From a virus (Duplodnaviria > Heunggongvirae > Uroviricota > Caudoviricetes): a DNA stretch of 53,826 nucleotides. Below, piece after piece: positions 37,115 through 49,806 of the stretch. The position numbers were made by a program, and so were the translations under genes. Numbering within the stretch: the stretch's first letter is position 1; each line of letters begins with the position of its first letter. The notes below the pieces were generated by a model that saw nothing but the letters and a program-made list of their open reading frames with translations, was not told the origin of the DNA and did no database searches. The stretch lies in the IMG/VR virus record IMGVR_UViG_2917855067_000007; one strand, 5' to 3'.

Positions 37115-37316
37115 TTTGAGATTGTGGTGCTTTTTGTGGTAGTTACCCACTTACGCACTTTGTATTGCTATGCCAGCAGTTAGCTTCTACTGTAAAACTA
37201 TTCATGCAGCAAACCTGCACTTCACCACAAAATGGGATTCAATACCCACAACTCTATCTGCATCTCTACTCAGGCATCAGCCTTCTTCGTTATCGTATAC
37301 AGACAAGCTATGAATT

Positions 37317-37532
37317 TTAATCAGTAATAATGACATTTGCTGCTGCAGGACCTTTAGCACCACTCTCTACAGAGAAGGTAACCTTTTGGCCTTCAAATAA
37401 GGTTCGATAATTATCATTCTGAATTGCAGAAAAATGCACAAACACATCTTTACTACCATCAACAGGAGAAATAAAGCCAAAACCTTTATCAGCGTTAAAC
37501 CATTTTACTAAACCAGTCATTTTATTTGACAT
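37317..37532 (-). CDS. cold shock protein (CspA family)
   Basis: 71 aa [38 protein letters not shown]...; RNP motifs. Confidence 0.9.
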
Positions 37533-37774
37533 TCTACATTCCTTAACTTGAGCCTTTCGGCATAAATGATTTGTATAACAGAAACGACTTCGTACTTAAT
37601 TGGAGAGACTCAAAGAAGGAATAAGTGAATAACACCTGAAATGAGAACTGCTTTAGTAAACTACTTCGTATATCGTCTGTTCTTCAAACCGACGCAGCCA
37701 TTAACGCATAGTTGTACACTTGGAAGCAATGTTTATTTTAGACATCCAGCCACCTCCCCATTTAAAACACAAAA

Positions 37775-40327: not shown

Positions 40328-40780
40328 TTAGTGACGCGGGTCTGTTATTATGCGAGAAGGGTTTCCGTATAAAACAAGGACCTTACTTCCTTGAGTAAAT
40401 AACGGCTCTTTGCCTTGAACAATGGTCATTAAATTCCCATTCTCAGTTTCGACAACATATTCCATGCCTGTTTGTTTTGTTGCTGAAGATTCGATTGCTG
40501 CCCCGGCAATACCACCAATGACTGCACCACCAACGGCACCAACGATATTAGAACGAACTCCCCCACCAAGCGCAGAACCAGCGGTTGCCCCCACGGCAGC
40601 CCCAGCAGTCCCGCCTAACGCGGAAGTCCCACTGATATCAACCCCCCTGGCACTAATAACTGTACCAGCGATAGTTCGATTAACCATGCCCACAGAGCCA
40701 ACAGAATAACTATTTGGCGATATATTTTGTGCGCATCCAACCAACACTAAGAGTGGAGCAATTACGAATAATCGCTTCAT
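40328..40780 (-). CDS. SlyB/Pcp-like glycine-zipper outer membrane lipoprotein
   Basis: 150 aa; lipobox LLVLVGC; Gly/Ala zipper; C-terminal block resembling SlyB; low-GC DNA. Confidence 0.65.
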   Translation of the reverse strand: MKRLFVIAPLLVLVGCAQNISPNSYSVGSVGMVNRTIAGTVISARGVDISGTSALGGTAGAAVGATAGSALGGGVRSNIVGAVGGAVIGGIAGAAIESSATKQTGMEYVVETENGNLMTIVQGKEPLFTQGSKVLVLYGNPSRIITDPRH

Positions 40781-41337
40781 TTAGCTACCCTAACAGGAAA
40801 CATTGGACGAGAAAGATCAACACTTTCTAATGCTTGCAAGAACTGCGTTATGTTGTTTTGCACCGCGCGATTAACAGATTCGCGTGCTCGAACAATACCG
40901 TAGAATGCGTAACTGGCTGGAACAGTACCGGTAGACTCAATATCCTGCGTATATATAATATCACCATTCGCACGGTTGATTATTTCATACCTTGCAATTG
41001 CTTTAGTTGTCATTGAAACACCAAAAGCAGGAACGTCAAGAGCCAACACTTTAACATTTAAGCTAACCGTATTTGGTGAACTATCACGAAAAATAGTCAT
41101 TCGGTCGAGTGCTTCCTGCAAAGATTCACGCCAAATTGGAGTTATAGCCTCCATACCAGCAGTGATATCCCCTTTCTGCTCATCTGGACGAGCAAGTGAT
41201 ACCGTTAATGACTTAATTTCAGCATCTATTTTTTTCTGGCTAACTCCCACGTTAGGTGTTGAAAAATTCAATGGTGGCACACTAGCGCAACCTGTTAAAG
41301 AACCAATAATCATGGCTAATAATATTATCTTCTTCAT
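40777..41337 (-). CDS. lipoprotein of unknown function
   Basis: 186 aa; lipobox GSLTGC; stop overlaps the SlyB-like start; low-GC DNA. Confidence 0.5.
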   Translation of the reverse strand: MKKIILLAMIIGSLTGCASVPPLNFSTPNVGVSQKKIDAEIKSLTVSLARPDEQKGDITAGMEAITPIWRESLQEALDRMTIFRDSSPNTVSLNVKVLALDVPAFGVSMTTKAIARYEIINRANGDIIYTQDIESTGTVPASYAFYGIVRARESVNRAVQNNITQFLQALESVDLSRPMFPVRVAK

Positions 41338-41594
41338 AAATTTACCTTATTGTTATAACCAAAGGAATTATAAAGTAAAAAAAGTTCACTATCACTAGCC
41401 ATTAACGACATCAATTTCAGAGAAACATGGTACTCATTTCCACAAATTTGACACAAGTCATTTTCATCTACATATTCCATCATACTTGATGCATATGTTA
41501 TTGAAGCCTCTATCCTATCCGTTCATAATAGCAATAGTTACCCGGGTGATAGTACCTCTATGATTACTCGTCTTTCTGATTGATTGGATTAAAT

Positions 41595-41786
41595 ATGCGC
41601 GCCAAAATTTATCAACTTTCGTTATGGATATTTATTTCGTTTCTAGCGATCTATGCCTTTATTATCTATAAAGGTTCTTATATTGGAGTAGCATTGCATC
41701 AAATTGCTTGGATCATCATTATTGCCTCTGGCTTGATTGCTAGGCTAACTAAACCAAAGCAAAAACCAATTTCGTCCAATAATTAG
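41595..41786 (+). CDS. small 2-TM membrane protein
   Basis: 63 aa from ATG at 41595; two hydrophobic helices then a basic tail; divergent from the lipoprotein operon. Confidence 0.35.
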   Translation: MRAKIYQLSLWIFISFLAIYAFIIYKGSYIGVALHQIAWIIIIASGLIARLTKPKQKPISSNN

Positions 41787-41823: not shown

Positions 41824-42117
41824 CTATTGAAAATTGCCGCGATAAAATGCCAACACCCGCTTCATCGCGGCACTCTGGCGACACTCCTTGAAAATCAGAT
41901 TCGTGCTCACCTTTCCTTCCCGTTCTTCCCTGGTAGCGAACCGGTAATACACCGTTCGCCAGACCTTACCATCAATGACTAAGATTCCTGTCCGCGCCAT
42001 TTTAGCCGCAGCCTGATTTATGCTGGTTACTGTTGCGCCTGTTACCGCAGCAACGTCCTGCGCACAGAAGCTCTTATGCGTCCCCAGGTAATGAATAATT
42101 GCTTCTTTTCCCGTCAT
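41824..42117 (-). CDS. ren: Ren
   Basis: 97 aa MTGKEAIIHYLGTHKSFCAQDVAAVTGATVTSINQAAAKMAR... matches lambda Ren. Confidence 0.85.
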   Translation of the reverse strand: MTGKEAIIHYLGTHKSFCAQDVAAVTGATVTSINQAAAKMARTGILVIDGKVWRTVYYRFATREEREGKVSTNLIFKECRQSAAMKRVLAFYRGNFQ

Positions 42118-44397: not shown

Positions 44398-44628
44398 TTA
44401 GGCGGCAGAATTACTCGCGTTAAACAATGGTGCGAGGTCGGGACGAATATCTGCTGGTTTAATCTTTCCACCAGTGGCTGAGACAATTTTCATTACATAG
44501 CGGGCATCAATTCCGCCACCGTGTAGCCAACGCCAAACAGTGGGTTGGGCTACACCGCATAGATCTGCCAGTCGTTTTTGACTACCTGTAATACTGATTG
44601 CGAGTTGAATGGTTTGATTTGTCATCAT
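44398..44628 (-). CDS. cro: Cro-like HTH repressor (YdaS-like)
   Basis: 76 aa; HTH SQKRLADLCGVAQPTVWRW; divergent from cI. Confidence 0.7.
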   Translation of the reverse strand: MMTNQTIQLAISITGSQKRLADLCGVAQPTVWRWLHGGGIDARYVMKIVSATGGKIKPADIRPDLAPLFNASNSAA

Positions 44629-44631
44629 CAA

Positions 44632-44735
44632 TTCCTATTGGTATTGCAATGAATGGATAATAGCAATGCGTATTAATCCAAGCAATAGCAAAACGTGTTT
44701 TGACCATCAATACGCAAGCGTATAAATTAAAACTT
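44632..44735. promoter_or_regulatory. OR region with divergent pR and pRM
   Basis: minus strand: TTGCTT, 17 nt, TATTAT (pR); plus strand: TTGACC...TATAAA ending a few nt before the cI ATG (leaderless-like); palindrome ATTGCAAT and AATAGCAAT-type motifs. Confidence 0.5.
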
Positions 44736-45428: not shown

Positions 45429-45717
45429 TCCCATGTCTACATAATAGACAATATTAATGATGGCGATAGCCAGAGCTCTCGCCATGACACTTTATGTTGT
45501 ATTGAATTATGCCACCCTACCACTATATATAGTAAACAACTTTCCAGCACCCCTTACCAGAATAATATGCTACCTAATAAGGATAAACAGCAATAAATCC
45601 TATCGTTTTGTAAGTGACGGATGTACATAAAGTTATTAATATGTACTAACAGTTACCTTTCAGGTAAAATGCAAGCATTATACAACTGGTTATTTATACA
45701 GTTAAGGAGGGCATAAC

Positions 45718-46188
45718 ATGGCTTACTCAGCTGCAGCGGTTGCTAATGCCTTCATTGAAAAGGCTTTAAAGGGTAAGTTAAAGAATCTGACTCCAATGAA
45801 GCTCCAGAAGCTTCTTTTTTATACTCAATCATGGCATTTAAAGTTACGCGACAACACACCGCTTTTTGATGATCTTTTCGCCAGATGGAAATTCGGGCCT
45901 GTTATTCCACCGCTTTATCATATGTTGAAGAAGTATGGAGCAAACGAAATCACTGAAAAGATTAGCGTCATCTTAGAGTGTGATGGCGAATTAAAAAGAA
46001 ATCACCCCTACAATTCAAAAAGATGATCAAGAAGCTCAAGCTCTTATCAATAAAATCATCGAAGTATATGGGAAATTTTCAGGTACCGAACTGTCTAACT
46101 TAACACATGCGCCTGGTACAGCATGGAGCAAGGGAAGTGCAGATGGTGGCCCCATTTCTCATGAGGATATGGCGAAGCATATTCACTA
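45718..46188 (+). CDS. Panacea-domain (DUF4065) protein, reading frame interrupted in the deposited sequence
   Basis: AAGGAGG then ATG; N-terminal 102 aa (AYSAAAVANAFIEKA...LTPMKLQKLLFYTQSWHL...FGPVIPPLYHMLKKYG) stop at 46024-46026; C-terminal part continues in +1 frame to the TAA at 46186-46188. Confidence 0.55.
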
Positions 46189-46572
46189 ATGAAGTCGTTT
46201 GATAGCATATCTATACCCAGTGGCACAAATGTAGGCTCATCGACAGTATCAAGTGCCGAAGATGAGCCGCCAATTACAGAAAGAATATCCAGAGGTGACG
46301 ACCTCAATGCTCAAAAAGCGGCAGACGCCAAGTCAAACAGGCAACTTCGTGAGATATTGGCGGAAAAAGCGTACCGTGTCGTAAAAAAATCACTTTACGG
46401 ATGGGCTTTGTTTCTTTTCTTTCAAGGCTGGTTTTCTATCATTGGGATAAAGGTTTTTTCCGATAAGGTAGTTTTGGCTGTAACAACAGCTGTTACTCTT
46501 AATGTATTCGCTGCTTTTCTTGGTGTTATCAGGGGATTATTCCCTGCTGCCAGTAGAAAAGATAAAAGTTAA
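46189..46572 (+). CDS. membrane protein with two C-terminal TM helices, candidate toxin/effector
   Basis: 127 aa; ATG overlaps upstream stop (TAATG); polar N-terminus, then two hydrophobic helices. Confidence 0.5.
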   Translation: MKSFDSISIPSGTNVGSSTVSSAEDEPPITERISRGDDLNAQKAADAKSNRQLREILAEKAYRVVKKSLYGWALFLFFQGWFSIIGIKVFSDKVVLAVTTAVTLNVFAAFLGVIRGLFPAASRKDKS

Positions 46573-46599
46573 CCCGGCCTCCGTGCCGGGTTTTCTTTT
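46573..46599 (+). terminator. rho-independent terminator ending the rex-slot operon
   Basis: hairpin cccggc-ctccgtg-ccggg followed by TTTTCTTTT. Confidence 0.75.
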
Positions 46600-46727
46600 G
46601 CCTCCCCTCATCACGCATATCGTCCTAAAAAACACCACAACCTCGCTTCAGTTATTGCTGTGCAATGCAAGTCACAAAATTAATTCTTTTTGCTATCAAA
46701 CATTTAATATCAAAACACATCAACCAA

Positions 46728-46780
46728 TAGCAATAAGTATTGATATCACCAATAGCAATAGCTATTATCACCATATCGCA
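46728..46780. promoter_or_regulatory. OL operator region
   Basis: ccaatagcaata twice plus perfect palindrome aatagctatt, same motif family as OR. Confidence 0.45.
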
Positions 46781-46966
46781 ACAACACAACGATACGGCAA
46801 CCACCTGATTCACCGTTGCGATGACCGCTTAGATCCGCAGCTTGAATTTCAGCAGGCTCCGGGGAGTGCGAGGGGTGAAGCGGACGCGTGAACGTCGGTG
46901 TGACCAGCTGAAATCAACTCAACTCAACACTTCATACCTCAGTCGCTTCAACGAGGCGGCTTAGTT

Positions 46967-49097: not shown

Positions 49098-49252
49098 AGC
49101 ATCCTCACGATAATATCCGGGTAGGCGCGATCACTTTCGTCTACTCCGTTACAAAGCGAGGCTGGGTATTTCCCGGCCTTTCTGTTATCCGAAATCCACT
49201 GAAAGCACAGCGGCTGGCTGAGGCGATAAATAATAAACGGGGGGCTGTATGA
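49094..49252 (+). CDS. hypothetical small protein, 52 aa
   Basis: ATG overlaps exo stop; stop overlaps the methyltransferase start; not in ORF track. Confidence 0.35.
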
Positions 49253-49806
49253 CTGATTTCACCGGAAGCAATACTCCTGCCGAACATCGCGACAGCTGGC
49301 GCACACCACCAGAGATTTTTGCTGCGCTGAATGCAGAGTTCGTTTTTCAACTTGATGCTGCAGCCAACGAAAAAAACCGGCTATGTCGGCTTTTTATCTC
49401 ACAGGAGCAGAACACATTAACCACTTCATGGCCTGAAGCAATGGGATATGCCTCTGGTTATGTCTGGCTGAATCCACCATACAGCAATATTTCCCCTTTT
49501 GTGAAAAAGGCAGCCACTGAAAACAAATTCAGTAGTGTGGGATGTGTAATGTTATTACCTGCTGACACGTCTGTCGGATGGTTTCATGAAGCGATACAAA
49601 CCGCCAGTGAGGTCAGATTCATCACGGCAGGACGACTGGCATTTATTAACCCACTCACCGGGAAACCCGTGAGTGGAAATAATAAAGGCTCGATGCTCAT
49701 TATCTGGCACCCATACCCCCGTACACACTGCCACTTTACGACCGTTGATCGTGGCGAGTTGATGGCGTTCGGCTCAAGGATTCTTGCCCGTCGGGAGGCT
49801 GCATGA
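49249..49806 (+). CDS. phage Dam-like N6-adenine DNA methyltransferase
   Basis: 185 aa; catalytic motif NPPY (WLNPPYSNI). Confidence 0.75.
   Translation: MTDFTGSNTPAEHRDSWRTPPEIFAALNAEFVFQLDAAANEKNRLCRLFISQEQNTLTTSWPEAMGYASGYVWLNPPYSNISPFVKKAATENKFSSVGCVMLLPADTSVGWFHEAIQTASEVRFITAGRLAFINPLTGKPVSGNNKGSMLIIWHPYPRTHCHFTTVDRGELMAFGSRILARREAA

Follow-up and report, generated by a model that had tools for sequence, protein, structure and literature searches.

The stretch of tailed-virus (Caudoviricetes) DNA analysed here, IMG/VR record IMGVR_UViG_2917855067_000007, is 53,826 nucleotides long and is referred to in its entirety as the window. It belongs to a lambda-like prophage and carries, between the gene for its cI-type repressor and the oL/pL-like region, a pair of genes designated panA and panT. 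On balance, the pair is best read as a mobile two-gene PanA-PanT toxin-antitoxin (TA) cassette of type II that occupies the cI-to-oL slot, is probably placed under SOS control when intact, and has decayed in the window. An initial annotation of the same DNA had proposed a PanAT-like TA module at this position; its Panacea-domain protein, its partner with two transmembrane (TM) helices and the conservation of the pair have held, while the antitoxin gene proves to be frameshifted in the window.

By comparison with characterised systems, the pair is assigned to the PanAT kind, as a member of a widespread and uncharacterised subfamily, and is classed as neither a Rex system nor a SocAB equivalog. 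Type II TA systems that join a stand-alone PanA to a membrane-depolarising PanT have been validated before (PMC8832971, PMC10440598), and the kind itself is known; what may be new is the SOS wiring and the recurrent placement beside RecA-sensitive repressors.

Antitoxin, membrane protein and their pairing

The first gene had been drawn as a single DUF4065/Panacea-domain reading frame at 45718-46188. The domain assignment stands, as the Pfam search proposed for it is significant both for the truncated window product (PF13274, SocA_Panacea, E=8e-13, profile positions 1-64 of 113) and for an intact relative (E=7.3e-21; 75.6 bits, the cut-off being 25.7). The single reading frame does not, an extra A leading to a stop codon that ends at 46026. 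The insertion, at 45999-46001, is evident against 11 complete E. coli genomes (alignment including loci L001 and L002). The truncated product consists of native residues 1-94 followed by NHPYNSKR and the stop (46024-46026), and deleting one A in silico yields a protein of 156 residues that is 155/156 identical to relatives. Separate translation of the 3' remnant of panA was considered and rejected, as the remnant is without an in-frame start codon.

The AlphaFold2 (AF2) model of an intact PanA homologue with 92% identity forms a single compact domain (predicted local distance difference test, pLDDT, 96; predicted template modelling score, pTM, 0.91) with helices at residues 5-17, 26-43, 64-73, 104-117, 122-129 and 148-153. 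According to this model, the break after residue 94 would remove three of the six helices, namely 104-117, 122-129 and 148-153, and the truncated protein is without 40% of its domain. Neither the model nor the sequence of PanA gave a significant structural match in the PDB, and the Panacea literature likewise describes the domain as without a solved structure that resembles it (PMC8832971).

The 102-residue product is 100% identical to a protein of Escherichia sp. E3356, which in a catalogue of about 15 billion proteins occurs on just one contig. The entire module region of the window is 100% identical to that strain's contig PDIE01000025.1, and E3356 is the source of the window. Intact PanA of 156 residues is encoded on all six of the contigs listed that encode an identical PanT, and intact panA is annotated in all 11 complete E. 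coli genomes that carry the window-type module. A genome-wide sequencing error is unlikely because the other long genes of the window, structural genes included, are intact. The extra A is read as a strain-specific mutation, a local assembly error being the less likely explanation. Judged from its sequence, the window cassette is a decayed copy, and the module as present is probably non-functional.

The second gene is intact, and the 127-residue protein with two C-terminal TM helices annotated at 46189-46572 is recovered by the open reading frame (ORF), by hydropathy and by AF2. Its hydrophobic segments span residues ~70-88 and 95-118, and its N-terminal 66 residues contain 10 K/R and 10 D/E. 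In the AF2 model, residues 1-31 are of low confidence and probably disordered, with helices predicted at 38-84 and 92-117. In the family alignment the N-terminus is variable, the charged helix is conserved and the second TM helix is nearly invariant (AITTAVTLNVFAAFLGVIRGLFP); hydropathy, together with K/R residues flanking both TM helices on the cytoplasmic side, fits a hairpin with N-in/C-in topology. PanT matches phrog_33656 (E=5e-42), a family without annotated function, and has no match in Pfam, NCBIfam or PADLOC-DB v2. The same PanT protein is present on many contigs.

The TAATG overlap recorded in the initial annotation is found as described, with the panA stop (TAA, 46187-46189) sharing one base with the panT start (ATG, 46189-46191). 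Across the family, panT is generally without a Shine-Dalgarno sequence of its own and starts at or shortly after the panA stop. The AGGAGG upstream of panA is conserved across loci. Given the stop/start overlap and the missing Shine-Dalgarno sequence before panT, its translation is likely coupled to that of panA. In the window, ribosomes on the frameshifted panA would stop 163 nt before panT; because the frameshift would uncouple panT translation, the PanT toxin is probably not translated here, which would explain why the strain tolerates the panA mutation.

Relatives of the two proteins are numerous. A first PanT search returned 65 clusters at 90% identity and an exhaustive profile search 311 clusters at 50% identity, with PanA/PanT relatives extending to Pasteurellaceae, Pseudomonas, Acidobacteria and Flavobacterium. 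Pairing was assessed in 72 loci, which include 51 IMG/VR viral contigs retrieved with PanT-only patterns and whose hosts include Escherichia, Enterobacter and Pseudomonas, alongside uncultured viral contigs. A PanA homologue lies directly upstream of panT on the same strand in every one of them (72/72), at a gap of -8 to +18 nt, bearing out the view of the two genes as one bicistronic module. Pairwise identities of PanA and PanT are correlated (r=0.91; Mantel test, 0/2000 permutations). Within E. coli the pair is rare, its three subtypes (RefSeq WP_077396019/WP_060710354, WP_001292087 and WP_001402904) being found in 11, 15 and 16 of 5426 complete genomes, 42 in sum.

Putative upstream control region and the LexA-like box

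The module had been supposed to be expressed in the lysogen in the manner of rexAB, a claim made doubtful by three elements that point to SOS-inducible expression: a promoter-like block of its own, a LexA box and a hairpin after cI. The promoter-like block comprises GTGACG (45614-45619), TAATAT (45637-45642), TGTACT (45642-45647) and, 17 nt further on, TAAAAT (45665-45670). The block recurs upstream of panA in three unrelated insertion contexts, the TAnnnT hexamer being placed without exception exactly 17 nt beyond the conserved TGTACT. We read the block as the cassette's own promoter, which would place the LexA operator just 3' of the transcription start. Several cassette contexts also share an imperfect inverted repeat between TGTACT and TAAAAT (GTTACC-n5-GGTAAA, 45653-45669), which may be an extra operator or no more than the promoter spacer.

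The LexA-like box sits 14 nt before the panA ATG, directly ahead of the ribosome-binding site. Apart from it, the 53.8-kb window contains a single site scoring at least 14/20. That one, at 49515-49534 (CACTGAAAACAAATTCAGTA, 14/20), lies inside an ORF at 49249-49806, occurs also in the sister prophage of E. coli AR_452 (L074) and is probably there by chance.

Among 30 distinct upstream regions of the family from outside Pseudomonas, 23 have a LexA-type core at most 100 nt from the panA ATG, and 19 of these 23 score at least 14/20, against ~0.5 expected from the background rate (~40-fold enriched). The family boxes comprise many different sequences, near-perfect ones included (for example TACTGTATAAATATACAGTT), and fall into two classes of distance to the ATG, 13-16 nt and 64-69 nt, both inside the range of genuine SOS genes (consensus and distances from PMC8072944). 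As a positive control, the same scan picked up the boxes ahead of adjacent dinI genes, with no further hit across those loci of 12-13 kb, and it found no LexA box in the alternative cargoes of the slot described below. Expression of the cassette is probably DNA-damage-inducible rather than constitutive in the manner of rex. Neither PanAT paper (PMC8832971, PMC10440598) mentions LexA or SOS, or placement beside cI/prtR.

The segment immediately after cI (45440-45510) folds as RNA at -18.7 kcal/mol (z -3.4), with 0/200 shuffled sequences equally stable. Its hairpin at 45460-45485 was not called by the consensus terminator scan, which called no canonical terminator between cI and panA. The hairpin may insulate the cassette from cI transcription or limit read-through.

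Comparison with known systems and candidate roles

Nine pairs in which PanA neutralises the toxin were validated as TA systems by Kurata et al. (2022). Three of these toxins combine a charged N-terminal part with TM helices at the C-terminus and either depolarise the membrane of E. coli or make it permeable; neutralisation by PanA needs neither ClpXP nor Lon (PMC8832971). Ernits et al. (2023) found that a stand-alone Panacea domain neutralises directly, contacting the N-terminal unstructured region of the toxin and a short helix preceding its TM segment, and that substitutions at positions 56 and 120 of their PanA abolish neutralisation. They propose Panacea as a sensor, and the membrane-depolarising RosmerTA of phage Kita defends against phages (PMC10440598). 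One mark of a PanAT in the sense of Kurata et al. is a two-gene layout, with the genes at most 100 nt apart, that is conserved in at least two species, and the family of the window pair shows it.

Like the membrane PanATs of Shiga toxin-producing E. coli (STEC) O31, Bartonella apis/choladocola (PanT-D11) and Helicobacter sp., the pair encodes a stand-alone Panacea antitoxin first and then a small toxin whose N-terminus is charged or disordered and whose TM helices are C-terminal, in adjacent or overlapping genes that are phage-associated. The E. coli O31 pair differs from the window pair in its 22-nt gap and in being scored 'NotPhage', the window copy differs from validated PanATs in its frameshifted panA, and the accessions of the three E. 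coli subtypes differ from those of the validated membrane PanTs (WP_000019185.1/WP_077993242.1). In the clustering of Kurata et al., the membrane-targeting PanTs are T3 and T12, T3 being very broad and mostly from Bacteroidetes. Two other clusters were considered and set aside: T6, with gaps of -1 and -4 in Enterobacterales, is a MazF-like RNase cluster, and T1, annotated as mRNase-like, was non-toxic and is not the family of the window pair.

In the mechanism proposed for the intact cassette, LexA, acting at the putative operator before the panA ribosome-binding site, would keep expression low in the undamaged lysogen, and RecA-stimulated cleavage of LexA would derepress the cassette in response to the same signal that inactivates cI. 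Translation of panT would proceed by coupling to panA, as suggested by the TAATG/ATGA overlap and the missing Shine-Dalgarno sequence. By analogy with the characterised pairs, PanA, as a single compact Panacea domain, would keep PanT inactive by binding to its N-terminal region in the cytoplasm and to its juxtamembrane helix. Once PanA is lost or triggered, the two-helix hairpin of PanT would oligomerise and depolarise or permeabilise the inner membrane, and growth would stop. In the window, the +1 A insertion truncates PanA after residue 94 and would uncouple panT.

Several points weigh against this reading. The likeness to the validated PanTs WP_000019185.1 (O31) and WP_077993242.1 (PanT-D11) is drawn from architecture, and the PanT model is of moderate confidence only (pLDDT 68). 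The phage-borne PanA-linked partners of E. coli MOD1 and Salmonella phage Emek (cluster T1) were non-toxic in the E. coli assays of Kurata et al. A viable strain with intact panT and broken panA is compatible with a toxin silenced because coupling is lost, and equally well with a PanT that is non-toxic at native levels. On the side of regulation, the promoter hexamers are weak, and a consensus scan (at least 9/12, plus strand) found no site in the spacer. The window box scores 15/20 and has G instead of T at its sixth position (CTGG), and the scan found no box in some family members (Stx2a phages and loci L011, L023 and L024).

Other systems share parts of this design. As with RexA-RexB of lambda, the cassette lies downstream of cI inside the immunity region with a terminator before oL, and it comprises two genes, one of them for a membrane protein predicted to collapse the membrane potential; the Rex system is known to act through the membrane potential. 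Neither protein, however, matches a Rex family in Pfam at E<=1, Panacea being the only Pfam family hit, PanT has two TM helices as against the polytopic RexB, and the cassette has its own promoter-like block and LexA box, which may take the place of simple co-transcription with cI.

E. coli possesses SOS-induced membrane toxins as well, dinQ and hokE among them. As is proposed for the cassette, tisB/istR-1 (TisB, PMC11997105) has a LexA box in control of a gene for a small protein of the inner membrane that is expected to depolarise the cell once its DNA is damaged. These systems are nonetheless type I, the antitoxin being an RNA and the toxin a peptide of 30-50 residues, whereas the window cassette has a protein antitoxin (type II) and a toxin of 127 residues with a large cytoplasmic domain. 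The type VI TA system SocA-SocB of Caulobacter is related through SocA, in which a Panacea domain is likewise present. The score of PanA against the SocA_antitoxin model of NCBIfam (NF047745) is, however, 93.3 bits, far below the equivalog cut-off of 190, and PanT is a membrane protein and not a SocB homologue. SocA is moreover a ClpXP adaptor for the replication inhibitor SocB, whereas neutralisation by PanAs generally depends on neither ClpXP nor Lon.

The insertion contexts of the PanA-PanT pair are varied. It follows S24 cI repressors of several types in the same direction (the window; loci L030, L035 and L044), and in Shiga toxin (Stx) 2a phages of O145, with a PanT 57% identical, it follows a BsuBI-type type II restriction-modification (R-M) system downstream of cI; further copies are found after dinI near tail-fibre genes and beside integrases. 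On a 47-kb viral contig (L024:742-4384), the pair adjoins a type I cyclic-oligonucleotide-based anti-phage signalling system (CBASS), composed of a CD-NTase cyclase and a patatin phospholipase effector (E=7e-144 and 4e-93). In fluorescens-group Pseudomonas (IMG/VR contigs L047-L072, e.g. L055:2456-4276), the pair is arranged divergently beside a 256-residue S24 repressor whose DNA is 83% identical to the prtR gene in the tailocin/prophage cluster of P. fluorescens Q8r1-96, prtR being a LexA-like repressor of tailocin clusters. PanA-PanT is, by these comparisons, a conserved two-gene unit that is mobile among temperate phages.

The cI-to-oL slot is itself an exchangeable cargo hotspot. Loci equivalent to window 45429-46600 were compared in two sister prophages at thrW/proA. 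In that of E. coli AR_452 (L074:6832-8405), with an identical cI protein, the slot holds a HipA-family kinase and a DUF3037 protein matching the PADLOC candidate PDC-M66A/B (E=6e-15 and 4e-16). In that of E. coli S1 (L075:14529-15392), with a 230-residue repressor, it holds an unrelated hypothetical protein of 287 residues with a weak PDC-S42 match. A Stx-like prophage of E. coli strain 48 (L076:2817-3566) has HicAB downstream of cI, followed by a 66-nt 3' remnant of a Stx-type panT, and the same remnant occurs without the module in several other genomes. Such remnants suggest that cargo is exchanged by recombination near the terminator. With PanAT, R-M, HipA-kinase/DUF3037 and HicAB among its cargoes, the slot of thrW-type and Stx-type lambdoid prophages would be a good place to search for further defence genes.

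For the role of the pair, the first guess is phage defence or abortive infection, although it is a tentative one. PanA would then sense phage and free a pore-forming PanT, and the prophage would possess an anti-phage system that replaces RexAB functionally. Consistent with this are the position in the rex slot between cI and oL, the candidate defence cargo PDC-M66A/B in the slot of the sister prophage with identical cI and HicAB in the Stx-like prophage, the placement after type II R-M in Stx2a phages and beside the CBASS cyclase and patatin in L024, and the status of the pair as a rare accessory (42/5426 complete E. coli genomes); the sensor proposal of Ernits et al. and the anti-phage precedent of RosmerTA (PMC10440598) point the same way. 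The comparison with defence profiles (PADLOC-DB v2) that the initial annotation had recommended gave nothing for PanT and only PDC-M19A at E=0.049 for PanA, and its remark that the module is not described as a defence system is upheld, with no PADLOC model and no published report of defence by this pair or by any PanAT. The LexA box speaks against constitutive lysogenic expression, the association with defence genes is a genomic one of the sort expected of any prophage 'moron' gene, and the window copy has a broken panA.

A more specific proposal, rather less probable again, is that the intact family constitutes an undescribed DNA-damage-gated anti-phage system, missing from today's catalogues of defence systems, with Panacea as sensor and the two-helix PanT as pore-forming effector of abortive infection. 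Expression may in that case be tied to RecA-sensitive repressors, through LexA boxes in enterobacterial prophages and through adjacency to the tailocin prtR in Pseudomonas.

The next guess after defence is a selfish TA, an addiction module that stabilises itself and its prophage through post-segregational killing and brings the host no benefit. We consider it unlikely. The strict co-inheritance of the pair in unrelated contexts (downstream of cI, after dinI near tail fibres, beside integrases and beside prtR) would suit such a module, as would the classical type II layout with the antitoxin first and translational coupling, and the decay of the antitoxin by frameshift in one strain fits weak selection. 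It leaves unexplained, however, the recurrent LexA boxes and the placement beside RecA-sensitive repressors, as well as the high degree to which PanT is conserved over hundreds of clusters, and the recurrent defence-system neighbours fit a host benefit somewhat better.

The topology of PanT, with two TM helices and a short charged C-terminal tail, resembles that of class II holins, raising the prospect of an SOS-induced accessory device for lysis or its timing, in which PanT would be holin-like and PanA antiholin-like during prophage or tailocin induction. The large pores formed by validated membrane PanTs (PMC8832971), the LexA box and the adjacency to cI or prtR, which control lysis programmes, are in keeping with this idea, as is a weak match of PanT to a holin PHROG. 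That match (E=0.038) is not significant, though, and the PanT model has no significant match among viral protein structures. The module lies outside the lysis cassette of a prophage that has a separate lysis region, and a cytoplasmic N-terminal domain of 66 residues with a Panacea partner is unlike known holin/antiholin pairs, making a lysis device highly improbable.

Should the reading as an SOS-gated PanA-PanT cassette be true, it would add a widespread subfamily of hundreds of clusters to the PanATs, borne by temperate phages and tailocin regions. It would also be the first PanAT with SOS-tied expression, as far as known, and would offer a handle on the question of what triggers a Panacea antitoxin. 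The window copy is probably dead and the practical message accordingly modest, the intact alleles being the ones of experimental use.

Layout of the immunity region and other features of the prophage

The features of the cassette and its surroundings are collected in Table 1. The two ORFs are positioned between cI and oL/pL, which is the rexA-rexB position of lambda, and the module, directly 3' of cI, lies inside the immunity region. An operator-bearing block of 49 nt is present twice, between cro and cI (44659-44707) and again at 46726-46774, the two copies being 73% identical. Three further elements of the initial annotation are also found. The AT-rich spacer of ~290 bp between cI and panA measures 289 bp (GC 0.32-0.38), the strong terminator after the second gene has a folding free energy (dG) of -20.2 kcal/mol (z -5.3, RNA fold), and the retained ren, at 41824-42117, lies in a stretch ~97% identical to relatives in which RefSeq gives 'protein ren'. 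The counterpart of cI in relatives is annotated as an S24 family peptidase, and the identical E3356 contig has a 230-residue HTH_3/Peptidase_S24 gene.

Table 1. Features of the cI-to-oL region in the window (44.3-47.3 kb)
Feature	Position	Strand	Basis or remark
cro-like gene	44398-44631	minus	
cI-type repressor, 230 residues	44736-45428	+	HTH_3 + Peptidase_S24; left border of slot
Hairpin just 3' of cI stop	45460-45485	+	RNA fold; possible weak terminator/attenuator
Cassette-borne promoter-like block	45614-45670	+	Conserved across three unrelated insertion contexts
LexA (SOS) box-like palindrome AACTGGTTATTTATACAGTT	45684-45703	.	CTG-N10-CAG, 15/20 vs TACTGTATATATATACAGTA
Shine-Dalgarno AAGGAGG of panA	45704-45710	+	Read from sequence
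panA 5' part, truncated Panacea-domain ORF, 102 residues	45718-46026	+	
Frameshift site	45999-46001	+	Alignment; AAA in window against AA in every intact relative
panA 3' remnant, out of frame	46002-46189	+	Ends TAA 46187-46189; encodes C-terminal Panacea helices
panT-like gene, intact, 127 residues	46189-46572	+	ORF; variable N-terminus, charged helix, two TM helices
Intrinsic terminator closing cassette	46571-46600	+	8-bp GC-rich stem, then TTTTCTTTT
oL/pL-like region	46723-46774	+	CAATAGCAAT operator repeats; right border of slot

To the right of the slot, a promoter-like TTGATA-17-TATTAT (46740-46768) faces kil-gam-bet-exo, and kil, gam, bet and exo come after the oL/pL-like region. The interval from the pL-like promoter to kil (46775-46966) is GC-rich (0.56) and non-coding, with no N-like antiterminator ORF apparent and no Rfam family. 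Within or near the module, the Rfam search likewise returned no RNA family. At the prophage end, the integrase adjoins tRNA-Thr(CGT) and proA, the lambda-like prophage lying at thrW/proA of Escherichia sp. E3356.

Further accessory features lie in the prophage interior. On the minus strand, 40328-41337 holds two overlapping ORFs of 150 and 186 residues with lipoprotein-like signal peptides (…LVGC, …LTGC), and on the plus strand, a hydrophobic ORF of 68 residues (41580-41786) is located between ren and the nin-region genes; these ORFs resemble accessory ('moron') genes. The cspA thermoregulator RNA (Rfam RF01766) is matched over its full length, at 155.9 bits, on the minus strand at 37301-37693, and the prophage interior carries at this place a 5' untranslated region and gene of the cold-shock-protein type.

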